From: an uncultured Verrucomicrobiota bacterium
Lineage (GTDB): Bacteria > Verrucomicrobiota > Verrucomicrobiia > Chthoniobacterales > JACTMZ01
Reading direction: 5' to 3'
Length of the DNA stretch: 64,000 nt
NCBI GenBank assembly: GCA_903953565.1
Contig: CAJBKE010000065.1
Span: 2,244-66,243 of the forward strand
In this document: piece after piece, positions 27,447-55,133 of the stretch
How the letters are laid out: every line of letters begins with the position of its first letter
How positions within the stretch are numbered: the stretch's first letter is position 1
Translations under genes and position numbers: made by a program
The notes under the pieces: generated by a model
What the model was told of the DNA's origin: nothing
Database searches by the model: none
What the model saw: only the letters and a program-made list of their open reading frames with translations

Positions 27447-27457
27447 AGAGAGCAGCT

Positions 27458-28462: not shown

Positions 28463-28578
28463 CGCATTAGTGACGCTCCAAGACTCCGTGAAGTCAAACT
28501 GTTTCCGAAGGAATTTTCCCCGGACTGCGCAGTGGGCTGCCTCCCGAGTAAGTCGAAGTCTTATGCTTCACGTGTTCT

Positions 28579-28695
28579 CGGGTAGGGCGGGGCCTTTGCC
28601 TATGGGCCATCTCCACTGCGTTCCGGTTGGACCCGCCGCGTTCCCCCAGAGAAGGGCGATTATCCCGGCGCGCCGAGGATGTCGCGCCCTACCCG
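28579..28695. repeat. GTAGGGCG-family REPIN carrying a 34-bp loop insert
   Basis: Terminal inverted repeats CGGGTAGGGCG...CGCCCTACCCG; internal hairpins GGCGGGGCC/GGACCCGCC and GGCGCG/CGCGCC. Confidence 0.7.
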
Positions 28696-28758
28696 TCTGG
28701 CTCACGTTGACCCCCTGGTTTCTCCCGCCACACACGCGCCAGCGTGCGAATGCAGGGA

Positions 28759-29424
28759 CTAGGGGGCAGGCGGAGGGGATGGTGGCATTGCGGCTGCAGG
28801 CCGGAGGCGGGCCAGTTCCGCCGCCGCAATCATGGCTGCAGGGGTTTCACTATGCAATGTACCCACCGACTCCAGAACGGCACGGGCCTCTCCTTGCGAA
28901 CCCATTTGGCCAAGCAGCTTGGCTTCGGCGAGCAAAGCCAGCGGAGCGGCATAGGAAGCAGCGTATTGCGAGGAAGCCACGCGGTAGGCCTCGAGAGCCC
29001 CGTTATTCTCAGCCTGCATTTGCCGCAGTTCGCCGAGCGTCAACCAAGCCGCGCCGGCCAGGGGATGCTGTGGCTGCGCCTTGAGGAAGTTCTCCAACTC
29101 CCCCGCAGCACCCGCGAGATCGCCGGACGCACGAAGGGATTCGGCCACTTGCAACTGCGCGTTGCCCGCCGGGACCGTGCCCGGATACTTCGCCACCACC
29201 TCGCGCCAAGCCGCGGCATCGCCCGCCGTGCCATAAAGCGCCTCGGCCGCGGCAAGATGCCGAGCCGACCAGAACTTCCAAACCCCCACCGCGAGAATGA
29301 GCGCGACCACACCGGCCAAACCCCACGCGAATTTTTTCCAATGCTCCTGCCAAAAAAGGTCGCTGTCGGAAAACTCCACCACCGGCTCGAGCGCCGGACG
29401 CAAAACGGATCTTGGCTCTTCCAT
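28759..29424 (-). CDS. YfgM-like membrane-anchored TPR protein
   Basis: FWQEHWKK then a TM helix, then TPR-like repeats (YPGT, HPLAG.AWL). Confidence 0.75.
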   Translation of the reverse strand: MEEPRSVLRPALEPVVEFSDSDLFWQEHWKKFAWGLAGVVALILAVGVWKFWSARHLAAAEALYGTAGDAAAWREVVAKYPGTVPAGNAQLQVAESLRASGDLAGAAGELENFLKAQPQHPLAGAAWLTLGELRQMQAENNGALEAYRVASSQYAASYAAPLALLAEAKLLGQMGSQGEARAVLESVGTLHSETPAAMIAAAELARLRPAAAMPPSPPPAP

Positions 29425-29434
29425 AAGATCGTGG

Positions 29435-30400
29435 TCAGGAATTCGCGGCCGCACGCGCCTCGTCGGCCAGCGCGGTGCTGAGGTAACGCTCGCCGGTCGA
29501 ACAGGCCACGGTGACGATGAGCTTGCCTTTGTTCTCGGGGCGCTTGGCCAGTTCCATCGCCGCGTGCACATTGGCGCCGGAGCTGATGCCTCCGAGGATC
29601 CCCTCTTCCTTGGCCAAACGACGCGCCATGGCAAAGGCGTCATCGTTCGAAACGGTCAGAACTTCGTCGACCACGTCGAGATGCAAATTGTCCGGAACGA
29701 ACCCTGCACCCGTGCCTTGGATTTTGTGCGGACCGGGTTTGACCGGCTCGCCGGCGCGCGTCTGTGAAATAACCGGCGAATCCTTTGGTTCGACCGCAAC
29801 AATCTTAACGCCGGATTTCCGCTTCTTGAGCACTTCGCCCACGCCGGTGCAGGTGCCTCCGGTGCCGACCGCGGAGACGAAGATGTCGATCTTGCCATCC
29901 GTGTCATCCCAAACCTCTTCCGCCGTGGTCTTGGCATGCACGTCGGGGTTGGCCGGATTTTTGAACTGCTGCGGCATCCAACCGTTCGGCGTGTTTTTCA
30001 AAATCTCCTCCGCCTTGGCAATCGCGCCCTTCATGCCTTCGGCGCCGGGCGTGAGCACGAGCTGCGCTCCGAGCATGGCGAGCAACGTGCGACGCTCGAC
30101 GCTCATCGTCTCGGGCATGGTGAGGATAAGCTTGTAGCCCTTGGCTGCCGCAACAAAGGCCAGCGCAATGCCCGTGTTGCCGCTCGTCGGCTCGATGATG
30201 ATGGTCTCCTTTTTAAGGACGCCCTTCTTCTCGGCATCTTCGATCATGGCCATGCCGATGCGGTCCTTCACGCTGCCGAGCGGATTGAAAAATTCGCATT
30301 TCACCGCGATGGTCGCGCCCGCGCCTTCGCTGATTCGGTTGAGTTTGACCAGCGGCGTGCGGCCGACGGTTTCGACGATATTGTTGTAAAGTTTACCCAT
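29435..30400 (-). CDS. cysK: Cysteine synthase A
   Basis: [35 protein letters not shown]. Confidence 0.97.
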
Positions 30401-30678
30401 GGTTGGTCCGCCCGTTTCCGGGGAATCACGTTGCATAGATTCAACCGGGCGACAGATCAATGTTCGATTTCGGAGCGCCGACACCGGCAAGACCGGCTTG
30501 ATAGCAAGATCCCGGATCTTGGGATGCCTGACGTCCCAAGTAAATCACTGTCGCTGAAAGCGTTGAGCGTCATCGCTTGCAGCACGTAACCACGCGCTTG
30601 CGATGTCGGCAGTTTTCCGTGCGAAGAATGTGGGATTTTCCTTGCACCAAGCAGCTTTCCGCGTAGAGTTTTTCCACC

Positions 30679-31359
30679 ATGAAAAGAACGTTCCTCACCT
30701 TGGCGACTGTCGTCATCACAGCCTGCGCAGCGACTTATGACGCAGAGGCCCAACCAAATACTTACACCAACAGCTCTGCCTTTTTCGCGGCGATTAGCGC
30801 GAGCAATTATACAGAAACCTTCAACAGCATTCCGGGTGCGAATTTTGTCACCACGCCGACCAACTTCAGCGGCAACGGGTTCAGCTTCACGGCGACCACG
30901 GATACCAACGGCCCCCTTCCTCCTCCGGACAACAATCGGCTCTGGGGCCTGACCAACGGCGGCGGCGGCGACCGCTGGTTGACCATGTTTTACCCCAATT
31001 ACGGTTTGGTCTTCACCAACTTCAGCCTCAACGTCTCGGCCATCGGCGGCAACTTCTTCGCCACCGATGACCTCGGCTTCTTCACCAATTCTCCGATCAA
31101 TGTGAGCATCCTGCTTTCGGACTCCAGCACTTTCAGCACCAACTTCACGGCTTCTTCGGTCTCGAGCTTCCTCGGCGTGACCTTTAACACCAATGTTTCG
31201 ATCTCGTCACTAGTCATCTCCAATCTCAACGTTCAACCGCAGTTTCCCACGGCCAACAATCTCATCATCGGCGTGGTGCCCGAACCTTCGACCTACGCAT
31301 TGCTCGGATTGGCTGCGGCGGGATTTGCCGGCTACGTCATTCGTCGCCGACGCGCTTGA
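30679..31359 (+). CDS. PEP-CTERM sorted surface protein
   Basis: Signal peptide; C-terminal VPEPSTYALLGLAAAGFAGYVIRRRRA. Confidence 0.93.
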   Translation: MKRTFLTLATVVITACAATYDAEAQPNTYTNSSAFFAAISASNYTETFNSIPGANFVTTPTNFSGNGFSFTATTDTNGPLPPPDNNRLWGLTNGGGGDRWLTMFYPNYGLVFTNFSLNVSAIGGNFFATDDLGFFTNSPINVSILLSDSSTFSTNFTASSVSSFLGVTFNTNVSISSLVISNLNVQPQFPTANNLIIGVVPEPSTYALLGLAAAGFAGYVIRRRRA

Positions 31360-31392
31360 TTTCGCGCGCGGTCTAATATTCCGATCCGCCGG

Positions 31393-32355
31393 TTACTGCG
31401 CCGGCGGCAAACTCTTCAGCGCCGCGGCGGCTTGTTCATGGCCGCCCTTCGCGGCCATCTCCAGATAGTCGCGCGCCAAGGCACGGCGCTCGGCGAGCTT
31501 GTCGGAGAACATGTAGAGCCACGCTATGACAAACTGCGCCTCGTGGTCGCCCCGTTCCGCGAGAGGTTTGAGCAGGGCCTCGGCCGCGACTTCGTCCTTG
31601 GCCAAACGGTATTCGCCGCGGGCCAGGGCAGCGGCGAGAAAGAGCGCGGCCTGACGGCTCCCGGCCTCCGCGGCGCGCTTGAGCCAGTTCACGCCCTCGG
31701 CCTTTTGCGCCGCGTCGTCCGACTCGACGAGCAGGCATCCAAGAGAAAATTGCGCCGGAATGTGGCTCTGTGCGGCGGCCCGCCGTCCCCACTCGGTCGC
31801 GGCCTTTTTGTCCGCCGTCGTGCCGCGGCCAGCGGCATACATGGCGGCCAGCTGATATTGCGCGTCGGCCATGCCGCGGGCGGCCGCTTCCTTCATGTAG
31901 GCAAAAGCCTCCACGTCCGAGGCCGGCATGCCGCGGCCGGCCGCAGCCATGCCGGCGAGCTCATACTGCGCCTCGCCATCACCTTGTCCCGCCACCAATT
32001 GCAACAAGCGGACGGCCTTTTGCCAGCGTTCGGGATCGTTTTCGGCCCGCGCGTAAAGCACTCCCAGGCGCGTCTGCGCCCAGACCTGACCCTCATCAGC
32101 AGCTGCCGAATACTGCGCCTCGAGGATGCTTGGGTCGGTCAGAGTGGCTCCCTGCGCCGAAGTCAACGAATCAGCTACCGCCTCATCCGGCGCCGCCATC
32201 ACTTGCTCCCAAACAACGCGCCCGGCCGGCTTGGGCATGAGGCCGGGGTTGCGCTCGCTCTCCGGCCAAGCCGGCTGCTCGGGGGAACGCGGGCAGCCCG
32301 CCAGCAAAGCGGCCAAGGAAACAAAAATAGATATCCTTAGAGCCTTCGCCACCAT
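31393..32355 (-). CDS. Sel1-repeat lipoprotein
   Basis: Lipobox LAGC; repeats AQTRLGVLY, AQYELAGM, AQYQLAAMY, AQFSLG. Confidence 0.88.
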   Translation of the reverse strand: MVAKALRISIFVSLAALLAGCPRSPEQPAWPESERNPGLMPKPAGRVVWEQVMAAPDEAVADSLTSAQGATLTDPSILEAQYSAAADEGQVWAQTRLGVLYARAENDPERWQKAVRLLQLVAGQGDGEAQYELAGMAAAGRGMPASDVEAFAYMKEAAARGMADAQYQLAAMYAAGRGTTADKKAATEWGRRAAAQSHIPAQFSLGCLLVESDDAAQKAEGVNWLKRAAEAGSRQAALFLAAALARGEYRLAKDEVAAEALLKPLAERGDHEAQFVIAWLYMFSDKLAERRALARDYLEMAAKGGHEQAAAALKSLPPAQ

Positions 32356-32514
32356 TGCGGGGCTCAACGTAGGGGCACACTCACCGGAACTCAATCCCGT
32401 TGCATGGCGCATTCTCCCCGGAAACCTCGGGCCAGAATAAAAGTTCCGGTTGTCAACAGAAGGTCCAGATGCTACCGGTGCTTGCGAAAAGGCCCCAAAG
32501 ACGAAACTCGGACC

Positions 32515-33246
32515 GTGAATCAAAAATTTCATGTCATTTTGCTTGCGGCTTTCGCTGGTAGCGCGCTGCACGCCGCACAGGTGACCAACGTCATCGACGA
32601 CCTGACCACGGCGCAGACCCTGCAGGCTGAAAACGCGACCTCGACCAATACGGCGACCGCAGCCGGAGCAATCGGCGGGTTTCGCACCACCATCCTTAAT
32701 TCGGCCGGCAACAATGAAGGAGAACCGACGGGTATCGCGGTGAATGCCGGGACCCAAAGAATGTCCCTCGCTACTCCCGAAGGAGCCACTTCAACTTTCC
32801 AACTGCTCTGGGGCGGTGCCAACGGGACGGCGGGACTCGGCGGCGTCGACTTCGGCGCCGGCCAGCCGCTGGACCTCTTCACCAGCGTGCTGTCCTTCTC
32901 GCTCCGCTCCACCGATCAAGCGAGCAACTTCACGTGGACCTTCACGGACACGCTGGGCAACAGCGCCTCGTACACCGGCAACTTTACCGTGCATTCGTCG
33001 GCCAGTCCCCCGCTCGGCTACAACATCCTCTTGAGTTCCTTCTCCAATTCCCCGGCAGTCAACTGGAACGCTATCGACTTCATCGCCTTCTCCGGCGGCG
33101 GCGTCGACAGTCTGGACATGAGTATTCCCGCGCCATTCGCAGTCGTGGCCAGCACCGTGCCGGAACCGGGCACTTGGATGCTCTTCGCTTCGGGATTGGT
33201 CCTCGCAATCATCATGGTTCGCAGACAGGCGACTCGCCGCAGCTGA
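32515..33246 (+). CDS. PEP-CTERM sorted surface protein (paralogue of 35195..35968)
   Basis: GTG start, signal peptide, VPEPGTWMLF...RRQATRRS. Confidence 0.9.
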   Translation: MNQKFHVILLAAFAGSALHAAQVTNVIDDLTTAQTLQAENATSTNTATAAGAIGGFRTTILNSAGNNEGEPTGIAVNAGTQRMSLATPEGATSTFQLLWGGANGTAGLGGVDFGAGQPLDLFTSVLSFSLRSTDQASNFTWTFTDTLGNSASYTGNFTVHSSASPPLGYNILLSSFSNSPAVNWNAIDFIAFSGGGVDSLDMSIPAPFAVVASTVPEPGTWMLFASGLVLAIIMVRRQATRRS

Positions 33247-33343
33247 GATCCCGCGTAATCACCCCGCCGACGACCCCGGCCCCTCAGGCCACAAAAGCTT
33301 TTTTTGCACCGCGGGGCCAAAGGGGATACTTGATTTGGCCGAC

Positions 33344-35092
33344 ATGCCGGAAACAACACCACGGAGGAGCAGACGCCGCAGCCGGAAAAGGCTGCTGCGC
33401 CGTCCGTGGTTCATTGTCCTTGTCGCGGGTCTCGTGCTCGCAGTCGGTTTCTATGTTTTCACCGGCTGGCGCGCGCGTGACCTTGCCGGCAAAGCGCGGG
33501 AAAATTTCGAGAAAGGTAACTACCGCATGGCTTGGCTGCAACTGGGCAGCGCGCGAGAGCTGAGAGCCGGAGATTCAGAAGTGCTTCGCACGGGCGCCTT
33601 GCTCGAGGCGAAATTCGGGCGCCCCGAAGCTCTGGCCGCCTGGCAAGAATTGGAAAGCAGGGGCGCGCTGCGCGACGAAGATCTCGACGACAAGGTCCAG
33701 CTGGCGATGCGATTCGGCAGCGAAGAGGATTTCGAAGAAGCCGTGCGCAAGCTCGAAGCTTCCGGCGCGGGCGACGAAGCGCTGAGCTTGCGCGCTTCAC
33801 GTGCCGCCCTGCGCGGCGATTTGGACCGGGCCATCGCCGAAGCGCGCCGGGCTGTTCGAATGACGGGAAAACCAGCAACTCAACTGGAACTCGCCCGCCT
33901 GCTGGGCCAACGCCACGGCCACGTGCTCCGCAATTACGGGAAGCCCGCGGCAGCGGATCTGCCGGCCCTGCAGGAAGTGGTCCTCATCATCGACGGATTG
34001 CAGGGCAGCGAACTTTCCGAGGCGGCCTTGGCCTTGGGTCTGGGTTCGGCCGCCGCCGACAACCGAACCAAAAAAAGATGGGCCGAGGCTGGCATGAAGA
34101 ACGTTGCACCGTCGAATCCTGCGCTGCTTCCCGCGGCGGAGTTCCTTGTGCGCAGCGGCGACGCATCGGCCAAAGAAATGCAGAGCCGCCTGCGGCCCGT
34201 CTATGACACAGCCACGGTGGCACAGCGCGCCGAACTCGCGCTCTGGCTTTCCCGCCAAGGCCTGCCCAAGGACGGTCTGAGCCTCGTCACGGCACAGGAA
34301 GCAGCGGATGACCTGCCCGCATTTTTGGCCCGCACGGATGCCATGGCCCGTCTGGCCAATTGGCGAGGCGTCCTCGAGGCGACCGAAACCGCCGAGAAGG
34401 TGCCTGACTCCATGCGCCAACTCACGCGCGTCTGGGCGCTGGTCAATCTGGATAACGGCGTGGCCATGGGCCCCTCGGTGACCCAGGCCGTGGAAGCAGC
34501 CGTCCAAGCCGCAGCAAGGGAAAAAAAGCTTCGCCCCATGCTGGAGTCTCTGGACGTGATCGGCGCAGGCACGGCAACCGACGGGAAACTGGCGCAGCTT
34601 TGCGCCGATCCCGAAGTGGCGGACATGGCTTTCTCCCTCTTGCGCGAACGTGTCGGTCGCACCGGCGGCACGGATGCTTTGGAAGCGGCCTACGCACGCG
34701 CCCTCAAGGCGGCGCCCGGCGGACACTCGGTGCAAGATCACGGCCGTTACCTCGAACTTTTCCGCAGCTTGCGTCTCGAATCAAAAGACACCGCGGCGGC
34801 CATAGTCAGCCGTCCGTCCGAGGTGTCCCCGCGCATCACGCACGCTCTCCTCATGTTGCGGCGCAATGATCCGGCGGCAGCCAAGGCAACGTTCGACGAT
34901 TTGACCGTGTTCTTTGACCAATTGCTCCCTTCGCAGCAGGTCGTGGTCGCGGCCTTCACCGCGGGCACGGGCGATGAAGTTCTGGCGCGTAAAATGCGGG
35001 GGGTCATCGATAAGAAGGTTCTCACACCGGGCGAAGCTGCCGTGCTCGAGCAATGGGTGCCTCTGGATGAGAATGCTGCACCCCGTCGGTGA
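33344..35092 (+). CDS. Membrane-anchored TPR-like helical protein
   Basis: Basic N-terminus, one TM helix, Ala/Leu-rich helical repeats. Confidence 0.7.
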   Translation: MPETTPRRSRRRSRKRLLRRPWFIVLVAGLVLAVGFYVFTGWRARDLAGKARENFEKGNYRMAWLQLGSARELRAGDSEVLRTGALLEAKFGRPEALAAWQELESRGALRDEDLDDKVQLAMRFGSEEDFEEAVRKLEASGAGDEALSLRASRAALRGDLDRAIAEARRAVRMTGKPATQLELARLLGQRHGHVLRNYGKPAAADLPALQEVVLIIDGLQGSELSEAALALGLGSAAADNRTKKRWAEAGMKNVAPSNPALLPAAEFLVRSGDASAKEMQSRLRPVYDTATVAQRAELALWLSRQGLPKDGLSLVTAQEAADDLPAFLARTDAMARLANWRGVLEATETAEKVPDSMRQLTRVWALVNLDNGVAMGPSVTQAVEAAVQAAAREKKLRPMLESLDVIGAGTATDGKLAQLCADPEVADMAFSLLRERVGRTGGTDALEAAYARALKAAPGGHSVQDHGRYLELFRSLRLESKDTAAAIVSRPSEVSPRITHALLMLRRNDPAAAKATFDDLTVFFDQLLPSQQVVVAAFTAGTGDEVLARKMRGVIDKKVLTPGEAAVLEQWVPLDENAAPRR

Positions 35093-35194
35093 TCCCAACT
35101 CTCTGGCCATCATAGGCTTATGAGAACGACTAAATTTCGCTTGTTGGGCGGAACAATCTACTTAGATTTACCGCAGGTATTTAAAGCCTTCGCC

Positions 35195-35968
35195 ATGAAA
35201 ACAATCCCTCTTCTTCCGACCTTCTTCGCCGTTTTTTGCCTGGCAACCGCAGCCAAAGCCTCGGTGATAACTTACATCGACGATTTCACCACTACACAAA
35301 CCGCGAATGCCCTTAACTCTACCGCGACGAACACCGTTGCCGCCACAGGTGCCGTCGGCGGGTTCCGCACGTTTACGTTGAACTCCGTCGACAACGATCC
35401 CGACTTGGGCAACACAATCATGCGCGTTTCGACCAACGCGCCGATCGGACCGCGCTTCAGCCTGAGCACGCCGACAGACGCGACCTCGTCCTTCGAAATC
35501 AAATGGGGTGGCAGTGGTGGCACGGCCGGGCTTGGGGGCATCGATTTTCGCGGAGGCATCGCAGCGACAAACTTCAGCCTGATTTCCAGCACGTTAAACT
35601 TCACCCTCCGCTCCGCCGACGTGGCCAGCGGTTACACCTGGTCATTCATCGACACAAACAGCAATGTCGCGACCTATTCTTCGACGTTCCCAAGTCACTC
35701 GTCCGTCAATCCTGCTATCTCCTACGCCATCAGTTTGGCCTCTTTCAGCGGATCAGGAATCGTCGACTGGTCTTCGATCAATTTTATCACGCTTTCCGGC
35801 GGCGGACTGGAATTGGATCTCAGCCTGCGTGCGCCCATTTCGGTGACAGCGACACCCGTCCCCGAGCCCGGCACGTGGGCCGTCGGCGCACTGCTGCTCG
35901 GAGGTGCGGCTTACACTTTCTGGCGCCGACGCCAAAACACGGTCGTCGCCTCATCGGCCGCGGCCTAA
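35195..35968 (+). CDS. PEP-CTERM sorted surface protein
   Basis: Signal peptide; VPEPGTWAVGALLLGGAAYTFWRRRQ. Confidence 0.92.
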   Translation: MKTIPLLPTFFAVFCLATAAKASVITYIDDFTTTQTANALNSTATNTVAATGAVGGFRTFTLNSVDNDPDLGNTIMRVSTNAPIGPRFSLSTPTDATSSFEIKWGGSGGTAGLGGIDFRGGIAATNFSLISSTLNFTLRSADVASGYTWSFIDTNSNVATYSSTFPSHSSVNPAISYAISLASFSGSGIVDWSSINFITLSGGGLELDLSLRAPISVTATPVPEPGTWAVGALLLGGAAYTFWRRRQNTVVASSAAA

Positions 35969-35984
35969 AACGGAAAATTCCTCG

Positions 35985-36023
35985 AAAAAACCCGCGCCTG
36001 CTCGGTGCGGGTTTTTCTTTTTT
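35985..36023. terminator. Bidirectional intrinsic terminator
   Basis: AAAAAA-CCCGCGCC-tgctc-GGTGCGGG-TTTTTCTTTTTT between convergent genes. Confidence 0.85.
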
Positions 36024-40374: not shown

Positions 40375-40421
40375 GCCGGATTTGTAGCGGGGTTACGCCC
40401 CCCCGCGCAAGGCAGCGCGGC

Positions 40422-42188: not shown

Positions 42189-42294
42189 GGCGCACCTCTG
42201 TCGTTTGACTTGGCTGCACAAGGTGATTTAGAGACACTGTCTCCTCATACATGGCCCGCCCGCTCGACTCAACGCCCGGCTCTCCCTCACTGCC

Positions 42295-43389: not shown

Positions 43390-44507
43390 CCGCTCAACCG
43401 GAAGCGTCCGGCGGACCCGCGGAGGAACTCCGCCGCCGCATCACGCAGCACGGCCCGGTCGGTTTCGACGAATTCATGGCCGTCGCGCTGTATCATCCGC
43501 AGGGTGGATACTACGCATCACAAGACAATCGCACCGGACGTCGCGGTGATTTCTTCACCAGCGTCAACGTCGGTCCGGTTTTCGGAAAACTTCTCGCTGC
43601 GCAATTCGTGGAAATGCGGCAACTTCTGGGCGAACCGGAGGACTTCACCCTTGTCGAGCAGGGCGCGAATGACGGGCAACTCCTGGCCGACATTCTCGCC
43701 GCATGGCCGGGGCCGGCACCGCGCGTGATCATTGTCGAACCCCTCGAACAACGCCGCGCAGCGCAGCGCAAAACTCTCGCGCCGTGGATCGACTGCGTGC
43801 AGCACGTCACGTGCGAAGACGAACTACCGAACTTCACGGGTGTCTTTTTCGCCAATGAATTGCTCGACGCTTTTCCGGTGAAATTGATCGTGCGCGAGGA
43901 CGGGCGTTGGTTCGAACGCCGCGTCGGCAACGAGGACGGGCGTTTTGTTTTCGTCGATGCTCCATTCACCGGAGAAGCGCCTGCCGTGGCTGAGGATATC
44001 CGCCGTTTTTCCACGGAGATTTGTCCTTCGCTCACGCCATGGATTCGGACCGTGGCCGGCAAGTTGACGCGTGGATGGATTCTCCTCATCGACTACGGAC
44101 ATCCCTCCGCCATCCGCCATCAACTCGCCCGCGCGGCCGGAACCCTCGCCGCTTACCGCGAGCACCAACGCCTCGATGATCCTCTGGCCGATCCCGGTGC
44201 GCAGGACCTGACCGCGCACGTCGACTTCACCGCAGTGGCCCGCGCGGCAGAGCAGGCCGGGCTCTCCCTCGCCGGATTCACCGACCAGCACCACGCTCTC
44301 ACCGCCCTCGCCGCGCGGATCTTTCCGTCCATGCCCGATGCGCAACTCACCGACGAAGAAGCCCGGGAAATGCGCGCCCTGCGCCAGCTCCTCCACCCCG
44401 AGAGCATGGGAACTTCCTTCAAATTTCTCGGCTTGGCCAAAAACTCCAACGCACCCATCACCGCTTTCCGCTTCGCCCGCGATGCGCGGCGCGAGCTCTT
44501 CGCATGA
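43386..44507 (+). CDS. SAM-dependent methyltransferase, MidA/NDUFAF7 family
   Basis: FM..ALY.P..GYY, GDFFTS, ANELLDAFPV, IDYG, QDLTAHVDF. Confidence 0.92.
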   Translation: MTAQPEASGGPAEELRRRITQHGPVGFDEFMAVALYHPQGGYYASQDNRTGRRGDFFTSVNVGPVFGKLLAAQFVEMRQLLGEPEDFTLVEQGANDGQLLADILAAWPGPAPRVIIVEPLEQRRAAQRKTLAPWIDCVQHVTCEDELPNFTGVFFANELLDAFPVKLIVREDGRWFERRVGNEDGRFVFVDAPFTGEAPAVAEDIRRFSTEICPSLTPWIRTVAGKLTRGWILLIDYGHPSAIRHQLARAAGTLAAYREHQRLDDPLADPGAQDLTAHVDFTAVARAAEQAGLSLAGFTDQHHALTALAARIFPSMPDAQLTDEEAREMRALRQLLHPESMGTSFKFLGLAKNSNAPITAFRFARDARRELFA

Positions 44508-45244
44508 CACAACCGACCCCGGAGCAACGCGAAGCCGCCCGGCATCCCGCACCGGCCCGGCGCGCCGTCATGCACCAGCGCTGGGAAAATCTTCTCTTCC
44601 TTCATTGGTCTCTCGAGCCCGACCTTGTCCAGCGAACACTCCCACCCGGACTCCACGCCGATACTTTTGCCGGCGATGCTTGGCTAGGAATCGTTCCCTT
44701 CGCCATGCGTGCCGTGCGACCCGCCGGACTGCCCGCAGTAGGACCACTCTCGAATTTTCTCGAACTCAACGTCCGCACCTACGTTCACGACGACCGCGGC
44801 GTCCCCGGTGTCTGGTTTTACTCGCTCGACTGCAATCAACCCCTCGCTGTCCTCATCGCGCAAAAAATTTTCCGCCTCCCCTACCGCCACGCGACGATGC
44901 GGGCCGAATTCGGGCACACCATCGACTATAGCTCCACCCGGCGCGGCACCGGCGCGGAAGCAAGATACCTCTGGAGCCCGCACGGCGAGGGGCGCACGGC
45001 AGCGCCGGACAGCTTGGAGTTTTTCCTCCTCGAGCGCTACCACCTCTACGCGGCTCGCGGCAATCGCCTCTACCGCGGCACCGTTGCCCACCCGCCCTAC
45101 GAATTTCGTGAGGCCGGAGTCCGTGAACTCTCCACGACCCCGGCGGACCTCGACGGTTTTTCCGGTTTGGACCCTCAACCCCGGCACATCTGCCACGCCG
45201 ACGGCGTCGATGTTCGCATCCTCAGTCTGGAACAAGTCTCATGA
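44504..45244 (+). CDS. YqjF/DUF2071 family protein
   Basis: MHQRWENLLFLHW, FLELNVRTYV, GVWFYSLD, FLLERY. Confidence 0.9.
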   Translation: MTQPTPEQREAARHPAPARRAVMHQRWENLLFLHWSLEPDLVQRTLPPGLHADTFAGDAWLGIVPFAMRAVRPAGLPAVGPLSNFLELNVRTYVHDDRGVPGVWFYSLDCNQPLAVLIAQKIFRLPYRHATMRAEFGHTIDYSSTRRGTGAEARYLWSPHGEGRTAAPDSLEFFLLERYHLYAARGNRLYRGTVAHPPYEFREAGVRELSTTPADLDGFSGLDPQPRHICHADGVDVRILSLEQVS

Positions 45245-46167
45245 AACTCCACGGCCTCCATCACGTCACCGCGATCACCGCGCACGCACGCGACAACCAT
45301 GATTTCTACACCCGCACGCTCGGCCTGCGCTTGGTGAAAAAAACGGTCAACCAAGATGACGTCTCGGCCTACCACCTGTTCTACGCCGATGGCGCCGGCA
45401 CGCCGGGAACAGATCTGACTTTTTTCGATTGGCCCACGGCACCCGAACGCCGCGGCACACGCAGCGTGACGCGAACAGGTCTGCGCGTTGGCAGCACCAC
45501 CTCGCTCGAATGGTGGCGCGATCGACTGGGCTTGAAAGATTCCATCACCGAACGTAACGGAAGGCCGGTGTTGGATTTTGAGGATCCCGAAGGACAACGC
45601 TTGAGCCTCGTCGTCGACGACGAACCGCCTGCCGCCGTCTGGGAACACGGCCCCGTTCCCGCCGGGCACCAGATCCGCGGCTTGGGTCCTTTGCTCCTCA
45701 GTGTGCCAACCTTCGAACCGACCGACCGCGCCTTCCGTGAACTGCTGCACCTGCAAAACATCGGAACTTACCCGATGGACGGACGCGATGTGCACGTCTA
45801 CCAAATCGGCTCGAACCCTGGAGCTGCACGCGAACTCCATCTGCGGGTCGATCCGGACGTTCCCGCCTCACGCCAAGGTGCCGGCGGCGTCCATCATCTG
45901 GCCCTCCGCACCACGCAGGCGGACTACCACGCGTGGGCACGGCATTTGGCCGAGTCTGGCATGCCCAACAGCGGGCCAGTCGACCGCCACTGGTTCCGCA
46001 GCCTCTACTTCCGCGAACCCAACGGCATCCTTATCGAAATTGCCACCGACGAGCCGGGTTTCACCACCGACGAAACGCTCGACAGGCTCGGCGAAACACT
46101 TTCCCTGCCACCCTTCCTCGAGACGCGCCGCCGCGATATCGAGGCCGGACTAAAACCTCTGGCGTGA
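45241..46167 (+). CDS. Ring-cleaving dioxygenase (VOC superfamily, MhqO-like)
   Basis: GLHHVTAI, KKTVNQDD..AYHLFY, HHLA, DRHWFRSLYFREPNGILIEIAT. Confidence 0.92.
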   Translation: MKLHGLHHVTAITAHARDNHDFYTRTLGLRLVKKTVNQDDVSAYHLFYADGAGTPGTDLTFFDWPTAPERRGTRSVTRTGLRVGSTTSLEWWRDRLGLKDSITERNGRPVLDFEDPEGQRLSLVVDDEPPAAVWEHGPVPAGHQIRGLGPLLLSVPTFEPTDRAFRELLHLQNIGTYPMDGRDVHVYQIGSNPGAARELHLRVDPDVPASRQGAGGVHHLALRTTQADYHAWARHLAESGMPNSGPVDRHWFRSLYFREPNGILIEIATDEPGFTTDETLDRLGETLSLPPFLETRRRDIEAGLKPLA

Positions 46168-46201
46168 CGCGCGGCGTCCACACCGCTACGATTTGCGCCT
46201 C

Positions 46202-48004
46202 ATGTCCAAGGAAGCCCAACAGCGCATGGAGAAAATCGTCAGCCTCTGCAAGAGGCGCGGTTTCATTTTCCAGTCCTCCGAAATCTACGGCGGCCTCAAC
46301 GGCTTCTGGGACTACGGCCCGATGGGCGCAGAGCTGAAGCGCAACCTTCGCGACACATGGTGGCAAACGATGACGCGCGACCGCGACGATGTCGTCGGCC
46401 TGGATGCCAGCATCATCATGCATCCGACCGTTTGGACGGCCAGCGGCCACGTTGACACCTTCAGCGACCCGATGAGCACCTGCAAACACTGCAAGAAGCT
46501 GGTGCGGTCCGACCAATGGTGGGCCATGATGGCCGAGCAGAAGTGGACGCAATCCGTCGCGGAGTTGGTAGAATCGGGCACCAACCGCTTCCAGCCGGCT
46601 GACTTGCTCAAGTGGGGCAAGGGCAAAGGCAAGCAGCTCGCCCCCAACCTCGCGCTGGTCCGCAATCCGGATGTGACCATTTCCTGGCTCGCGGAGGAAA
46701 TCGAGAAGGGCCGCGGTCCGGCTGATGCCACCGAGCTCTACAAATTTCTTGCCACCGAACAGATGGCCATCACGGGTCTGGTCACGCCGTGCCCGCACTG
46801 CGGCGGCGAACTGACCGCACCGCGGCCGTTCAACCTGATGTTCCGCTCCCACTACGGTCCCGTCGAGAGCGAGGACAACATTTGCTACCTCCGCCCCGAG
46901 ACGGCGCAGGCCATTTTCGTGCAGTTCAAGAACGTCCTCGATTCCTCGCGGGTCAAAGTCCCCTTCGGCATCGCGCAAATCGGCAAAGCCTTCCGCAACG
47001 AAATCACCCCGCGCAATTACACGTTCCGCTCCCGCGAGTTCGAGCAGATGGAATTGGAGTTCTTCATCCGCCCCGATGACGCCGTGCGCCTCATCCACGG
47101 ACACGTCGAAAAATGGAGGGATGGCGCCGATCTTTCCGCCCCGAGCCCCACGTGGGGCTGGGAGATGTGGCACCGCTATTGGGTCGACCAGCGCACCAAA
47201 TACTACGACTCCGTCGGATTGGGCACCGACGTGCTCGATTACCACTGGCAAAAGCCGGAGGAACTCGCCCACTACGCACGCGCCACGGTGGACATCCTTT
47301 TCAAGTTCCCCTTCGGCACCGAGGAACTGGAAGGCATCGCCGCCCGCGGCGACTTCGATCTCTCGCAGCACCAGAAATTCTCCGGCAAACAGCTGGAAGT
47401 CTTCGACGAGGAACTCAAGGCTGCCACCGACAAACTGAGCGACGAGCAGAAAAAAGAATTCATCGACGAACTTTTCGAGGGCCGCAAATGCGCGGACACC
47501 ACCCGGGAGGAAATCTCAGTTTATGCGGACAAGCTTTTCAAGGGATTTTACCTACCCCATGTGATCGAGCCGTCCGCCGGACTCGACCGCATGGCCCTCG
47601 CCGTGCTGGCCGCGGCTTTCGACGAGGAGACCGTGACCGACGAGAAAGGCAAGGCCGAGACGCGCACCGTCCTGCGCCTCCATCCACGCATCGCCCCGGT
47701 CAAATGCGCCATTTTCCCGCTGCTCAAAAACCGGCCCGAACTCGTGGCCAAAGCCCGCGAAGTCGAAGCCTCGCTGCGTCGCCACATGAACGTCTTTTAT
47801 GACGAAGCCGGCGCCATCGGACGCCGCTACCGCCGGCAGGACGAGATCGGCACGCCGTTTTGCGTCACCGTCGACTTCGACACCATCGGCGAAAACGGCC
47901 CCGAAAAGCTCGACACCGTTACCTTGCGCCACCGCGACTCGATGCAGCAGGAGCGCATTCCCATCGCCGAACTCCGCGCGCGCCTCGAAGCGGCCATTCT
48001 TTGA
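46202..48004 (+). CDS. glyQS: Glycine--tRNA ligase, alpha2 type
   Basis: LRPETAQ, GKAFRNEITP, REFEQME, VIEPSAGLDR, IGRRYRRQDEIGTP. Confidence 0.96.
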   Translation: MSKEAQQRMEKIVSLCKRRGFIFQSSEIYGGLNGFWDYGPMGAELKRNLRDTWWQTMTRDRDDVVGLDASIIMHPTVWTASGHVDTFSDPMSTCKHCKKLVRSDQWWAMMAEQKWTQSVAELVESGTNRFQPADLLKWGKGKGKQLAPNLALVRNPDVTISWLAEEIEKGRGPADATELYKFLATEQMAITGLVTPCPHCGGELTAPRPFNLMFRSHYGPVESEDNICYLRPETAQAIFVQFKNVLDSSRVKVPFGIAQIGKAFRNEITPRNYTFRSREFEQMELEFFIRPDDAVRLIHGHVEKWRDGADLSAPSPTWGWEMWHRYWVDQRTKYYDSVGLGTDVLDYHWQKPEELAHYARATVDILFKFPFGTEELEGIAARGDFDLSQHQKFSGKQLEVFDEELKAATDKLSDEQKKEFIDELFEGRKCADTTREEISVYADKLFKGFYLPHVIEPSAGLDRMALAVLAAAFDEETVTDEKGKAETRTVLRLHPRIAPVKCAIFPLLKNRPELVAKAREVEASLRRHMNVFYDEAGAIGRRYRRQDEIGTPFCVTVDFDTIGENGPEKLDTVTLRHRDSMQQERIPIAELRARLEAAIL

Positions 48005-48008
48005 CCCC

Positions 48009-48683
48009 ATGGCGGACAACGTCCACCTGCACGCGCGCGGACTGCGCAAATCGTTCCGATTGGGCAACACAACCCTCGACATCCTCCGCGGACTCGACCT
48101 CACCGTCCTCCGCGGCGAAACCGTTTTCCTCTGCGGCGCATCCGGTGCGGGCAAGAGCACGCTTCTTTACACGCTGGCCGGACTCGAACGCCCGACTTCC
48201 GGCGACGTCCATTTCGAAAACGAGGATCTCTACGGCATCTCCGCCCGGCGTCAGGCCGAATTACGCAACACGCGGATGGGTTTTGTTTTCCAAAGCTACA
48301 TGCTCCTGCCCGAGTTGACCGCGTTGGAAAACGTTGCCCTGCCGGGAATGATCGGCGGAAAACCCGACCGCGAACGCGCGGCGGAACTTCTCGCCAAGGT
48401 CGGGCTCGGTCCCCGCACCGGTCACTTGCCCTCCGAACTCTCCGGCGGCGAGCAGCAGCGCGTGGCCATTGCCCGCGCTTTGGCCAATCGCCCGTCGATG
48501 CTCTTCGCCGACGAACCCACCGGAAACCTCGATTCCAGAACCGGCGGCGAAGTCATCGACCTCCTCCTCGGCCTCGCCCGCGAAAACGGCACCACCCTCC
48601 TCGCCGTGACTCACGACGCCAACCTCGCCGCCCGCGGCGACCGCGTCCTCCATATCCGCGACGGTCAACTCGAAGAATCCTAA
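48009..48683 (+). CDS. ABC transporter ATP-binding protein, LolD-like
   Basis: [32 protein letters not shown]. Confidence 0.88.
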
Positions 48684-48690
48684 CCCCCGC

Positions 48691-48750
48691 TTGTAGCGGC
48701 GGTCAGCCGAGCAAAGCGAGACAGGTTGAAGCGCAGCGAGGCCAACTGAT
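48691..48750 (+). repeat. GTAG-type REP remnant with expanded loop
   Basis: ttgtagcggcggtc identical to 2161-2174, followed by GC-AAA-GC and GC-GCA-GC mini-hairpins. Confidence 0.45.
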
Positions 48751-48861
48751 ATGGCCTCCGGGGCCCGTCCTCCTCCGTTCCCTCTGCGCCCATGGGGGTT
48801 TCCCCGCAACCCCGCGCGCTTGCCGCGGGTCATCCGGACGGATAAAGTAACTATCCGAATT

Positions 48862-49491
48862 ATGGCATACGAACTACCTCCTCTGACCTACGCGAACAAC
48901 GCCCTCGAACCGAACATCGATGCGCGCACGATGGAAATCCATCACGACAAGCACCATCAGGCCTACATCACCAACGCGAACAACGCGCTGAAAGACCACG
49001 CAGACCTCTTGGCCAAGCCGGTCACCGAACTCATCGCCGACCTCACCGTCGTCCCCGAGGCCATCCGCACCGCCGTCCGCAACAATGCCGGCGGCCACGC
49101 CAATCACACCTTTTTCTGGACCATCATGGGCCCGAACGGTGGCGGCGCGCCGAAAGGTAAATTGGCCGAGGCGATCAACGCGAAATTCGGCAGCTTCGAT
49201 GCTTTCAAAGAAGCCTTCGAAAAAGCAGGCGCCACGCGCTTCGGTAGTGGCTGGGCTTGGCTCGTTGTGAACAAAGCCGGTGAACTCGAAGTTGTCTCCA
49301 CCGCCAACCAAGACAGCCCCCTCATGGGCAAAGCCGTCGCCGGCGTCGAAGGCACCCCGGTCATCGGCTGCGACGTCTGGGAGCACGCCTACTATATCAA
49401 TTACCAGAACCGCCGCCCCGATTACCTCAAGGCCTGGTGGAACACGGTCAACTGGGACCAAGCCGAGAAAAACTACCTCGCGGCTTTGTAG
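48862..49491 (+). CDS. sodA: Superoxide dismutase (Fe/Mn family, Mn-type signature)
   Basis: [27 protein letters not shown]. Confidence 0.93.
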
Positions 49492-49512
49492 CCCGCGCGC
49501 AGATCACTCACG

Positions 49513-49548
49513 ACAAAAAGCCCGGGGCCCAAACCCCGGGCTTTTTGT
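49513..49548 (+). terminator. Intrinsic terminator after sod
   Basis: ACAAAAAGCCCGGGG-cccaaa-CCCCGGGCTTTTTGT. Confidence 0.9.
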
Positions 49549-49563
49549 TATAAAAACTCTGCA

Positions 49564-49630
49564 GGTGGATCGCGATGTCCCCATCGCGATTTCAGCACAG
49601 GAATATCGCGCCGGGACGGCGCGATCCACC
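49564..49630. repeat. REPIN-like element, GTGG family, copy 2
   Basis: Same arms as 2077-2143 with a different spacer. Confidence 0.9.
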
Positions 49631-49805
49631 TTCCCAGACGTTCAGAGCCTTTTCGCCATCGGCATGACAGCGGTTTGGCCGAGCGGTTAACATCATCTGT
49701 AGCCGCGGCTACACCAAACGGCTTCATCGATTCGCACAGAAAAATCTGGGGTTCCACCCCGGACTTTTCCTTTGGCTGCCGCCGCGCCGCCCCTAGAATG
49801 CCGCC

Positions 49806-50654
49806 ATGATTCCTCCGCAAAAGCAAATGACCGGCATGCTCGGTCACCCCGTGGCCGAGAACCCGATCGACCGCATGTTCGACGCGGTCTACGCGCACTA
49901 CAATTTGCCCTGGCAATTTTGGAAAAGCGACCTCGCCTCGGAAGCTGATCTGGCCTTGGCCGTGCCCGCTTTGGCGCCGCTCGGCTACCGCGGCTTCACC
50001 ATCACGGTTCCCTACAAAGTAGCGGTGATGCCCCTGCTCAACGAACTCGACAGCGACGTCAAAGCCATCGGCGCAGCGAATTACGTGACCATCGAAAAAG
50101 GACGCCTGGTCGGACACAACAACGACGGCAAGGGCGTGGTCAAAGCGATCGACAAAGTGGTGCCTTTGCGCGGACAACACGTCGTCATGCTCGGCGCCGG
50201 CGGCGCGGGACGCGCCATGGCCGTGGAAATCGCCTGGGCCGGAGCGGCGAAGATGACCCTTGTAACGCGTCGCGAAGAGCAGGGCCGCGAGGTTGCCGCT
50301 CTGGTCACGAAAGCCAGCGGCGTGCCCTGTGATTGGCAAGCGTGGCAACGCGAAGTGGAAGTGCCAGCCGGCGCCACTTTGCTCATGAACGCCACCCATC
50401 TGGGCTGCGCGCCCGAACTGGAGCCGGTGCCGGTGCGTTGGGATACCGTGAGCAAGGACTGCACGGCCGTCGACGTGATCACCAACCCGCGCATCACCCC
50501 TTTTCTTGCCACGGCGCGCGACCACGGTTGCCGCATCGTCGACGGCGTGGAAATGCTCGTGCAGTTGGCCATGCAGATTTTCGAGCAATGGACCGGCATC
50601 GCACCCGGCGAAAAAGTCTTCCAGCGCGCCGTGGCCGAGGCTCTCGGCGAATAG
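49806..50654 (+). CDS. aroE: Shikimate dehydrogenase family protein
   Basis: TVPYK, IGAAN, N.DG.G, GAGGAGRA, DG..ML..LA..IFE.W. Confidence 0.85.
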   Translation: MIPPQKQMTGMLGHPVAENPIDRMFDAVYAHYNLPWQFWKSDLASEADLALAVPALAPLGYRGFTITVPYKVAVMPLLNELDSDVKAIGAANYVTIEKGRLVGHNNDGKGVVKAIDKVVPLRGQHVVMLGAGGAGRAMAVEIAWAGAAKMTLVTRREEQGREVAALVTKASGVPCDWQAWQREVEVPAGATLLMNATHLGCAPELEPVPVRWDTVSKDCTAVDVITNPRITPFLATARDHGCRIVDGVEMLVQLAMQIFEQWTGIAPGEKVFQRAVAEALGE

Positions 50655-50712
50655 GCGTCTGTCTGCGCTTTGACTTGATCCCACAAAAATCTAAGCTGCG
50701 AGCTTTCCGATC

Positions 50713-51963
50713 ATGGCCTACATCAACGAGAACTACTCCAAACTCAAAGCCGGCTACCTCTTTCCGGAGATTGCGCGGCGCGTCAAAGCTTTCAGCGAAG
50801 CGCATCCCGACGCAGCAGCGAAGATCATCCGGTGCGGCATCGGTGATGTGACCGAACCCCTCCCCGCGGCTTGCCTCGAGGCTTTGCACAAAGCGGTGGA
50901 CGAAATGGGCAGCCGCGAGACCTTCCGAGGATACGGTCCCGAGCAGGGCTATGACTTTCTCCGCCACGCCATCGCGCAGCATGATTTCCGCGATCGTGGA
51001 TTGGAGATCGAGGACGATGAAATCTTTGTCTCCGACGGCTCGAAGTGCGATTGCGGCAACATCCTCGACATCTTCGGCCCGGGCAACCGCGTGGCCATCA
51101 CCGACCCGGTCTATCCGGTTTACGTCGACACCAATGTCATGGTCGGCAACACGGGTGACGCCGACGAATCCGGCGCCTACGCCGGTTTGGTTTACCTGCC
51201 CTGCACCGCAGAGAACGGCTTTGTCCCGGCCATCCCGAAGGAAGCCGTCGATCTTATCTACCTCTGCTACCCGAATAACCCGACCGGCGCCGTCGCCACC
51301 CGCGACCAGCTCACCGCCTGGGTCGATTACGCGCGCAAGCACCACGCGATCATTCTCTTCGACGCGGCGTATGAGGCCTACGTCCGCACCCCGGGCATCC
51401 CGCATTCCATTTACGAAATCGATGGCGCCCGCGAGTGCGCCATCGAGTTCCGCAGCTTCTCCAAGAACGGCGGCTTCACCGGACTTCGTTGCGCTTTCAC
51501 CGTGGTGCCGAAATCACTCCACGCCAGCACCCGCGGCGGCGAAAGCAAACCGCTCTATCCCCTCTGGCTGCGCAACCACACGACGAAATTCAACGGTGTG
51601 TCGTATCCCGTCCAACGCGCGGCCGAGGCAATCTACTCGCCGAACGGACGCCAGCAGGTCGATACCTTGGTCGATTTCTATATGGAGAACGCCCGCATCC
51701 TGCGCGAGGCGGTGTCCGGCGCGGGGCTGAAAGTCTACGGCGGCATCGATGCCCCCTACATCTGGGTCCGCGGACCCGAGGGCGTCGCCAGTTGGACCAT
51801 GTTCGACTTCCTCCTGCGCGAGGCCAACATCGTCACCACACCGGGCAGCGGTTTCGGCGCGGCCGGCGAAGGCTACTTCCGCATCTCGGCCTTCAACAGC
51901 CGCGAACGCGTGCAGGAAGCAGCCAAGCGACTCGCTTCGCTGGACTTCACAAAGGCTGGTTGA
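50713..51963 (+). CDS. dapL: LL-diaminopimelate aminotransferase
   Basis: [40 protein letters not shown]. Confidence 0.96.
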
Positions 51964-51982
51964 GCCGCGTAGGCTTCATGCC

Positions 51983-52186
51983 ATGAAAGCGTTCCTCCTC
52001 GTGGCTCTCGCGGTCGGCTCGGTCGGCTGCGCCAACCAAGATCCTTACCAGGACCCGACCTACGTGCTGCAGCGCGACCTTTACCACCGCAACCAAAAAT
52101 GGAACCGGACGATGAATGACGTCTACCTGCGCAACCAGGCACGCGACCAGCGCTATGATTCGTGGTTCAACGCGGTGATGGAGTAA
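51983..52186 (+). CDS. Small hypothetical lipoprotein (67 aa)
   Basis: MKAFLLVALAVGSVGC lipobox. Confidence 0.7.
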   Translation: MKAFLLVALAVGSVGCANQDPYQDPTYVLQRDLYHRNQKWNRTMNDVYLRNQARDQRYDSWFNAVME

Positions 52187-52222
52187 TACCAACGTCCCGT
52201 TGCTTTTGGGTTTTGATCGTCA

Positions 52223-52320
52223 GGTGGATCGCGATGTTTGCCTTGGGGCCATCTGCGCTTCGCTCCGGTTCTATCGCGATTTACTGACTGAAATATCGCG
52301 CCGGGACGGCGCGATCCACC
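52223..52320. repeat. REPIN-like element, GTGG family, copy 3, with a 34-bp loop insert
   Basis: Arms conserved; 98 bp rather than 67 bp because 52237-52270 replaces the TCC loop. Confidence 0.9.
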
Positions 52321-52364
52321 ACGCCAGACATCGGGAGCCCTTGTGGCGTTTTGTATAAAGCGCG

Positions 52365-52817: not shown

Positions 52818-52908
52818 TTCGGGGTGATCTTAGCCTGTCCGGCGTCCGCTGCAAAGCCGGAGGCGGGTCCGGACTTGCACAATTCCCGGGATGCATTATG
52901 GAAAACGC

Positions 52909-53403: not shown

Positions 53404-53411
53404 GCCGCATC

Positions 53412-54299: not shown

Positions 54300-54312
54300 G
54301 CGAAACCGCCAA

Positions 54313-54380: not shown

Positions 54381-54405
54381 TTACGGCGAAGAAACCGCTG
54401 CGGGC

Positions 54406-55095: not shown

Positions 55096-55133
55096 GGATC
55101 AAAGATGCTAGAGCCGGCGCAGCTCGGCACGCT

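Follow-up and report, generated by a model that had tools for sequence, protein, structure and literature searches.

A two-hairpin element of 22 to 45 nt in REP loops and other sites of Verrucomicrobia, very probably mobile and resembling small dispersed repeats

Introduction

Two REP hairpins of different families in the 64,000-nt stretch of DNA analyzed here (the window) contain versions of the same short module. What is this module, and how could it have come to lie in both hosts? How elements of 20 to 30 nt move has been a long-standing question since small dispersed repeats (SDRs) were described in the Nostocaceae, reportedly by Elhai et al. (2008, Genome Res 18:1484).

Results

The 34-mers at 28595 to 28628 and at 52237 to 52270 align without a gap and share 28 of 34 positions, which bears out the match claimed in a preliminary description of this DNA: the shared module in two REP hairpins is real. 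That description took the module to be 34 bp long and to replace the host loop. However, the first T, at 28595 and at 52237, is a host base, which leaves a module of 33 nt, and this module replaces CC rather than the whole loop. Copy 1 (28596 to 28628, GNA-loop strand minus) stands for the CC in the loop of a GTAGGGCGG REP arm, where 11 of the 13 other arm copies have a TCCG loop. Its host is a plus-strand, GTAG-tagged REP doublet (28582 to 28692) borne by a composite repeat of ~220 bp (28538 to 28760, no strand assigned). Copy 2 (52238 to 52270, also minus) occupies the first arm of a plus-strand, GTGG-tagged doublet (52224 to 52319) inside a MITE-like unit with TACCAA-type ends (52186 to 52356, no strand assigned). 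The four other GTGG doublets of the window (2077 to 2143, 49564 to 49630, and 54313 to 54380 on the plus strand and 59685 to 59751 on the minus strand) are empty, as had been stated. The minus-strand reading of the variable part as AC-GCA-GT in copy 1 (28615 to 28621, with an A.G mismatch alongside) and GC-GAA-GC in copy 2 (52257 to 52263) is also correct, and, judged from these letters and from family statistics, both are predicted mini-hairpins. When scanned with the grammar pattern of the family described below, the window contains these two sites only (0 in 100 shuffles), and at the Rfam gathering score it has no match to a curated RNA family.

The same family extends well beyond the window, with 58 matches in the source genome and 0 in a reversed-sequence control. 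Its layout is TT-hairpin-YRTCT-hairpin-CGGYT, with fixed ends (TT and YT), a conserved core, and a length of 22 to 45 nt; most copies are 29 to 45 nt long, and the minimal form is 22 to 23 nt. In the 57 modules whose middle is 11 nt long, the outer mini-hairpin pair is G-C in 30, A-T in 22, and something else in 5, so the compensatory change seen between the two window copies is a property of the family. The core pair covaries as well (125 of 125 in one set and 199 of 222 in another). The second stem combines an expandable tip with a mismatch that is fixed. Read from the minus strand, the fixed core mismatch is C.A; read from the plus strand, it is a T.G (G.U) wobble. GNA triloops are found on the minus strand in 120 of 196 distinct modules, versus 17 on the plus strand. 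The stem covariation and the one-strand GNA triloops favor a single-stranded DNA fold, and they support the view that this is a tiny structured element; we consider it probable that the element is handled by a single-stranded DNA route. Bare modules do not fold better than shuffles in ViennaRNA (z of −0.4 to 0.5), whose parameters give GNA loops and sheared pairs no special weight. According to passages of PMC13037366, mini-hairpins of this type, for example the GAAA form, have greater stability in DNA than in RNA. The bias in replication strand is not significant (31:21; P = 0.21).

We compared 194 unique sites, 156 of which have no empty counterpart in the sequences searched. At 32 of the 38 sites that have one, exactly 2 nt are lost (CC, 15; CT, 8; TA, 3; TT, 3; CA, TG, and TC, 1 each), and shuffled flank pairs give no comparable 2-nt peak. 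The copies are related, and P values therefore overstate. The C-first targets and the GNA fold are on opposite strands. Unlike a MITE, the element has no TIR, and its CC and CT targets are lost rather than duplicated. Three other accounts of the junctions gained no support. Only AA targets are compatible with a 2-bp target duplication; a UV-type CC-to-TT conversion is formally the same as replacement, yet TA and CA loops are also filled; a serine-recombinase core was considered as well.

Filled and empty alleles, which the preliminary description had proposed to look for, do exist, including at site 2, which varies in wild populations: it is empty in contigs from two studies (runs X3 and X7) and filled in those from a third (X5). 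The empty allele in X3 has 447 nt of flank with zero differences. Between the joints the empty allele reads CCC, one base off the family consensus, and the module may have been either gained or lost at this site. The MITE-like unit of site 2 is absent from its locus in most congeners, and congener G007 has a similar unit carrying a different REP cargo. At other loci, the ~220-bp composite of site 1 is filled in G003, G005, and G007 and empty in G006, G012, G041, and G042 (all congeners); beside the orthologous TPR gene, it is missing in the 14 congener loci checked.

The preliminary description also proposed that the module targets or hitchhikes on REP loops. It does ride on REPs, but REP-loop specificity is rejected, with only 12 of the 58 matches in the source genome lying in REP loops. 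Others are hosted by heptamer-type arrays, by tRNA-end duplicates, or by further copies of the element, and 51 of the 58 matches fall outside predicted genes in a genome that is ~89% coding. In other Verrucomicrobia, the element also occupies domain V of group II introns and lies in frame within genes. Its hosts (REPs, ATCCGTG arrays, intron domain V, IS5 genes, and sulfatase genes) have no sequence in common. A single small element thus reshapes REPs, tRNA-end duplicates, introns, and proteins. At five sulfatase and two IS5 transposase loci, 32-nt copies keep the frame open, since 32 nt minus the 2 nt lost is a net gain of 30; this fixed junction rule makes a 32-nt copy selectable as an in-frame +30. 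Paralogous sites (C6, C33, and C14) display progressive nesting.

The element is present in 26 of 30 congeners, with counts within the genus that span 0 to 49, and is patchy elsewhere in the phylum, the majority of 300 phylum genomes being without it. The viral contigs searched have no match, and the plasmids searched have no informative one. A loose search pattern matched at background level only, and a generic hairpin grammar (120 hits versus 90 to 100 in shuffles) was dropped in favor of the more specific pattern. The source genome shows no excess of a generic two-TNC-hairpin motif (7 versus 12 in the control), so the enrichment is limited to the specific family. A search of mostly open-access literature found no description of the element.

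It might be asked whether the element serves its host, for example as an SSB-resistant landmark used by primase or some other single-strand binding protein, its spread being incidental. GNA mini-hairpins are found at N4 promoters and at the priming sites of phages and plasmids, according to the same source (PMC13037366, in part), and the strong conservation of the core would fit such a role. However, a count that ranges so widely within one genus, the absence from most of the phylum genomes, and landing sites that include transposase genes, intron domain V, and the element itself make this very improbable. Instead, the fixed ends, conserved core, 2-nt loss, many unrelated hosts, nesting, and presence or absence at one locus lead us to conclude that this is very probably a mobile, SDR-like element.

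Discussion

SDRs reside in heptamer repeats and in minitransposons, nest in themselves, and have a conserved fold with compensatory changes. The element described here shares each of these traits, along with the size of ~20 nt, the dispersed occurrence in many copies of ~20 to 30 nt, and the precise filled and empty sites. We know of no enzyme for SDRs. The closest likeness is to SDR5, one of the SDRs of Nostocaceae discussed in parts of PMC5861425, PMC4390886, PMC2884548, and PMC3116915. A passage of PMC4390886 places the SDR5 insertion between nt 3 and 4 of HIP1, and we recovered HIP1-interrupting inserts of 21 nt from the N. punctiforme plasmid NC_010631 (none in its first 50 kb), which on that account are probably SDR5. 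Each consists of T, a 3-bp stem with a TNC loop, one base, a second 3-bp stem with a TNC loop, and T. The two adjacent TNC/GNA triloop hairpins and the general layout are common to these inserts and the minimal Verrucomicrobia module, and the first hairpin is nearly identical, by either homology or convergence; the SDR5 layout is thereby extended to a second phylum. In contrast to the Nostoc inserts, which keep every HIP1 base and target HIP1, the element causes a net loss of 2 nt at CC, CT, TA, or TT in varied contexts, and its second stem has the fixed mismatch and expandable tip. It is a doubtful but conceivable extension that both belong to one cross-phylum class of ~22-nt double GNA mini-hairpins that are still active in lake populations and whose movement as single-stranded DNA depends on an unrecognized dinucleotide-swapping enzyme with chemistry unlike that of HUH enzymes, IS110, or reverse transcriptase.

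Overall, we lean toward a two-hairpin, noncoding element of the SDR type that replaces a host dinucleotide, likely as folded single-stranded DNA and with an enzyme acting in trans. The minus strand would fold into two GNA-capped mini-hairpins, with the fixed C.A mismatch read by a protein; the target would be cut and lose two bases, for which the element's own TT and YT ends would substitute. After landing in a REP, MITE, or tRNA-end duplicate, the element could multiply together with its host, and longer forms may arise by the landing of extra mini-hairpins or whole modules inside it.

As to the enzyme, the single-stranded DNA (HUH) nuclease suggested in the preliminary description is plausible, and a HUH/RAYT-type nick-and-join in trans is our best guess, held tentatively. 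In parts of PMC8266576, TnpA-REP is described as cleaving single-stranded DNA at C|T and C|A, and at C|C given a GTGG guide, and the E. coli enzyme as requiring a stem mismatch. The replaced dinucleotides overlap these cut sites, and small hairpins, single-stranded DNA logic, and a stem mismatch are common to the element and the REP/REPINs with RAYT covered in passages of PMC8266576, PMC3733652, and PMC3116915. REPs, moreover, serve as its hosts. Against a HUH/RAYT enzyme, the module has no GTAG guide. It differs from REPs in lacking a GTAG or GTGG tag (its ends are TT and YT), in having two hairpins rather than one, in its 2-nt replacement, and in that no transposase gene flanked by it was found. 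A single HUH cut-and-join also leaves the 2-nt loss unexplained, because both target bases would be kept.

The source assembly, which is 95.7% complete, has no match to Y1_Tnp, NF047646, RVT_1, or IS110, and none by tblastn to four congener Y1 proteins. The expectation that copies flank a RAYT or other nuclease gene fails here: no RAYT was found in the assembly, and open reading frame clusters at 120 loci yield only sulfatases and small sets, with no common nuclease or transposase neighbor, so that a dedicated neighboring gene is rejected. Module load does not follow Y1 count (rho = 0.30; P = 0.32; n = 13), and the flanks of 12 Y1 loci contain no canonical module.

The failure to find a RAYT, IS110, or reverse transcriptase fits a model in which no dedicated enzyme is involved, and the module passes between hairpin-rich repeats through template switching or gene conversion in replication or repair and then hitchhikes with amplifying hosts. 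G007 has identical copies carried by one REP family, one copy (L148) is joined on its left to two different REP families, and the site 1 composite reappears prefilled in other species, all of which fit this explanation. On the other hand, identical ends and the 2-nt loss recur in hosts of unrelated sequence, while micro-homology switching would be expected to leave variable junctions, and we regard an enzyme-free origin as unlikely. Less likely still is an RNA route, in which a short plus-strand transcript is reverse transcribed at staggered nicks 2 nt apart so that two target bases are lost. An R2-like geometry is the model for such nicks, and the SDR authors are said to have preferred RNA intermediates. 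Primed synthesis at offset nicks would account for the fixed loss, the core mismatch is a wobble on the plus strand, and group II introns are present in some relatives. However, RVT_1 is unmatched in the source assembly, the GNA triloops are on the opposite strand, the stable RNA loop UNCG is rare in hairpin 1 tetraloops (~10 of the T-N-N-G loops), and orientation is unbiased relative to transcription (22:22).

A folded single-stranded DNA moved in trans remains our preferred reading, for a test of which the family offers exact ends, a very short minimal form, and a defined folded strand, and for which related genomes of such different copy number permit gene profiling. Among the 31 genomes compared, the number of four-helix-bundle genes correlates with that of modules (rho = 0.56). 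Kinship, assembly quality, and overall repeat load all confound this relation, and in G026 modules are absent although four such genes are present. The source assembly has seven of them, as well as a GxxExxY gene, two GIY-YIG genes (a small one with an internal stop and a long one), and four tyrosine recombinase matches, all unlinked to the element. A search of G031, which has 10 modules, found no GxxExxY gene.

IS1397 and the IS110 family are IS elements that target REPs. Insertion into REP hairpins, as treated in part in PMC3733652, is common to them and the element, but these IS are coding, kilobase-sized, and target-specific. Passages of the same article cover Rickettsia palindromic elements and intragenic REPs of Opitutus terrae, which resemble the element in residing in frame in genes; their structure differs, and the element is mostly intergenic. 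In G007, one module copy lies ~740 bp from a broken Y1 gene, and in a congener a RAYT-like gene (L166) is flanked by one host REP family of the element. Judged by eye, the neighbors of the element in the source genome are housekeeping, glycan, pilin-like, and toxin-antitoxin genes.

Module copies in the window

The module, a two-hairpin DNA element of 22 to 45 nt, is present in the window at 28596-28628 (site 1) and 52238-52270 (site 2), with the GNA-loop strand on the minus strand at both. The likeness pointed out in the preliminary description is borne out, in that the 34-mers starting at 28595 and 52237 are identical at 28 of 34 positions. The family pattern matches the window at these two sites alone (shuffled controls, 0/100). 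Site 1 lies in the arm of a GTAG-tagged REP (a hairpin repeat with a GTAG- or GTGG-type tag), an arm type with a TCCG loop in 11 of 13 copies. Site 2 occupies a GTGG REP arm, for which 76 of 101 matches have a TCC or TCCC loop. The window's four remaining GTGG doublets are indeed empty. Both copies are thus in REP arms as described, but alignment of filled and empty sequences shows a module of 33 nt that replaces CC, the first T being host derived.

Both window sites are layered insertions. At site 1, the REP is inside a 220-bp composite that is present, filled or empty, at other congener loci and is absent beside the orthologous TPR gene at all 14 congener loci checked. At site 2, the REP is inside a MITE-like unit that is missing from the locus in most congeners. 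MITE-like units with TACCAA-type ends (window 52186-52356; locus L376) are found at the same site in the genome under study and in congener G007, with different REP doublets. The window also contains a tandem repeat with an 18-bp period (27432-27719) within an ORF (27458-28462) that has no Pfam match, and a tyrosine recombinase domain at about 55188-55697 (minus strand) that we infer is probably Xer-like.

Filled and empty sites

Among the sequences compared, empty counterparts were found for 38 of 194 unique filled flank pairs. The gap at the empty counterpart is 2 nt in 32 of the 38, several of which have a single empty match each and several of which trace to one shared ancestral event; it is 0 nt in 1, 1 nt in 2, 3 nt in 1, and 4 nt in 2. 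When the flank pairing was shuffled five times, 32 hits resulted, of which 8 had a 2-nt gap. The 32 dinucleotides are CC (15), CT (8), TA (3), TT (3, for which replacement and plain insertion are indistinguishable), CA (1), TG (1), and TC (1). Copies of 32 nt in open frames independently support the 2-nt loss, because the net gain must be a multiple of three.

Contigs from sequencing runs of four separate studies (X3, X4, X5, and X7) were placed on window positions 49000-60200; the habitats of the runs containing this genome suggest a freshwater bacterium. A 478-nt X3 contig is identical to the window over 51790-52236, has CCC in place of 52237-52270, and continues beyond it; X7 has the same empty joint, while an X5 contig is filled and gap-free over 51731-52315. 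No empty site 2 joint is listed for the X4 contigs over 49000-60200. The 28 nt to the right of the site 2 module have an exact match in the genome only at their own locus, with two other copies differing by two letters. Based on the empty X3 and X7 joints, the filled X5 contig, and this locus-unique flank, we conclude that site 2 varies among very close relatives, and the filled and empty alleles that the preliminary description proposed to look for both exist. The empty allele is one base off the family consensus, and this variation fits gain and loss by conversion alike, the two being indistinguishable.

Family size, distribution, and hosts

The curated pattern has 58 matches in the genome under study and none in the reversed-sequence control, so the possibility that only the two window copies exist falls away. 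One match, located in a gene, is probably due to chance; 51 of the 58 are outside predicted genes in a genome that is about 89% coding (simple gene caller). With a stricter pattern, 26 of 30 congeners are positive, and counts across the congeners run from 0 to 49 copies (controls, 0 to 1). A scan of species-representative genomes gave at least 120 matches, and almost all of the 80 titled among the matches listed belong to Verrucomicrobiota (Chthoniobacterales, Prosthecobacter, Luteolibacter, Akkermansiaceae, and one Kiritimatiellia); one Enterobacteriaceae-labelled genome row is also among the matches listed. In a draw of 300 genomes from the phylum, 12 have a module match versus 13 with a control match, and among those 12 the only convincing ones are G283 (5 copies) and G234. 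The module thus has a patchy distribution. The viral contigs searched gave 0 matches.

Confinement to REP loops, as first proposed, does not hold: only 12 of the 58 matches are in REP loops (6 GTAGCGG, 5 GTGG, and 1 GTAGGG). By the flank rules used to assign hosts, 14 are nested with another module, 9 are at ATCCGTG-type array ends, 5 are in T-loops of tRNA-end duplicates, 2 are in clear heptamer arrays, and 16 have no host class, many of these being degenerate heptamer tracts by eye. Nesting layers are added stepwise at paralogous sites on contigs C6, C33, and C14. In other genomes, hosts include additional REP families, a group II intron domain V loop (L044 and L056; RF00029 score slightly below the gathering score), an IS5-type transposase gene that carries the module in frame (L025 and L129), and sulfatase genes with an in-frame module 3' of the signal peptide (five loci, two different frames). 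Both arms of one REP family in G007 carry an identical module sequence, which means that hitchhiking explains some of the copies. The phenomenon is real, and the module is more widespread and more promiscuous than the preliminary description supposed.

Several other arrangements were observed. At L148 (G007:C23:142880-143210), a module lies at the joint of one REP family's left arm and another's right arm, and at C59:86000-91500 of the genome under study, small cassettes of toxin-antitoxin and nucleotidyltransferase-like genes have at least 8 modules around them. Five of its 44 tRNA/tmRNA genes, at C33:161017 (Ala), C34:660 (Ser), C52:55235 (Asn), C52:56663 (Ser), and C68:46325 (Ser), have one or more ~100-nt copies of their own 3' end downstream; all of these copies have an invariant GNA-loop leader and, at the T-loop, a module or a variant of it. 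A second loop-filling insert, starting CTCTCCGAG and unrelated to the module, occupies GTGG REP loops at C2:10525, C6:306, C55:125485, C59:100538, and C60:32016, and is also self-nesting. A third, of ~21 nt, occupies the GTAGGGCG doublet, in its second arm, at L172, L177, L203, and three places in the genome under study.

Structure of the module

The plus-strand order is TT, hairpin 1, YRTCT, a variable middle, and CGGYT. The YRTCT purine pairs with the CGGYT pyrimidine in 125/125 copies (64 A-T and 61 G-C), and in 199/222 when the pattern left hairpin 2 free, with some chance hits and misparsed nests in the latter set. The hairpin 1 loop is TNC in 106/125 copies. In the 57 modules with the window-type 11-nt middle, the proposed covariation of the triloop stem is confirmed: 30 have G-C and 22 have A-T as the outer pair. 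Of the same 57, 46 have a TNC loop and 52 retain the flanking C...T, which is A.G on the minus strand. In the minimal module the middle is reduced to a single base, so its minus strand can be read as two short hairpins, one GNA capped with a fixed C.A mismatch. Longer forms contain additional G.A pairs, commonly arranged in a GNA/GNA stack, a DNA-specific motif. According to PMC13037366, mini-hairpins of the module's type have greater stability as DNA than as RNA. ViennaRNA did not rank bare modules above shuffles. The module probably acts as folded single-stranded DNA, and an RNA route seems improbable. Module orientation has no relation to transcription (22:22), and its bias relative to the replication strand (31:21) is not significant.

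Candidate movers

The neighbouring genes of module loci share no common nuclease or transposase, and no Y1/RAYT (an HUH-type transposase linked to REPs), reverse transcriptase, or IS110 was found in the assembly under study (95.7% complete), so the suggestion that modules flank a RAYT or other nuclease gene is not supported. This genome has about 200 GTGG REP arms and GTAG families although no RAYT gene was found in the assembly, and Y1 matches were obtained in 7 of 12 congeners. Movement by an HUH-type enzyme is a tentative possibility, in which a RAYT-like enzyme supplied in trans would act on the module. Such a mover is favoured because the RAYT cut sites reported in PMC8266576 (C|T, C|A, and C|C with a GTGG guide) correspond to 24 of the 32 dinucleotides replaced, because the E. 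coli RAYT-type enzyme requires a stem mismatch (also PMC8266576), and because in G007 a RAYT-like gene has one of the host REP families at its flanks. It is disfavoured because the module has no guide tag, because module load does not correlate with Y1 count, and because a single cut-and-join would not cost the target two bases. Spread by enzyme-free switching is somewhat less probable than an HUH-type mover, that the module is kept for a host function is very unlikely, and the probability that remains falls to an enzyme of a kind not recognised. At C64:280-650 of the genome under study, a small GIY-YIG gene interrupted by a stop lies 3' of a tRNA-like end (3') and of hairpins similar to variants of module hairpin 2.

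Relation to known elements

Very small mobile repeats are a kind already known though unexplained, and the module is a variant of this kind; our literature search found no published description of it. The covered parts of a REP survey (PMC3733652) treat GTGG-tagged and intragenic REPs of Opitutus and contain no description of a module-type insert. Classification of the module as a REP or a MITE was rejected by membership tests for each class. Its closest known relatives in kind are the small dispersed repeats (SDRs) of cyanobacteria, of which SDR5 targets the HIP1 repeat, entering between its bases 3 and 4, according to PMC4390886. Interrupted HIP1 copies were sought in Nostoc plasmid NC_010631, with 101 matches versus 27 in the control. 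Of 12 hand-picked matches, 5 can be read as inserts of 21 nt with two 3-bp hairpins one base apart, and 4 of these have TNC loops in both hairpins. These SDR5-like inserts have the same layout as the minimal module and a near-identical first hairpin; in contrast, the HIP1 inserts keep all host bases, while the module loses 2 nt. The module is thus SDR-like in its working and SDR5-like in layout. By target it is not SDR5, with which homology is unproven. Two-hairpin inserts longer than the 21-nt type also lie between HIP1 halves at NC_010631 positions 107556, 123228, 235412, 262811, and 346327.
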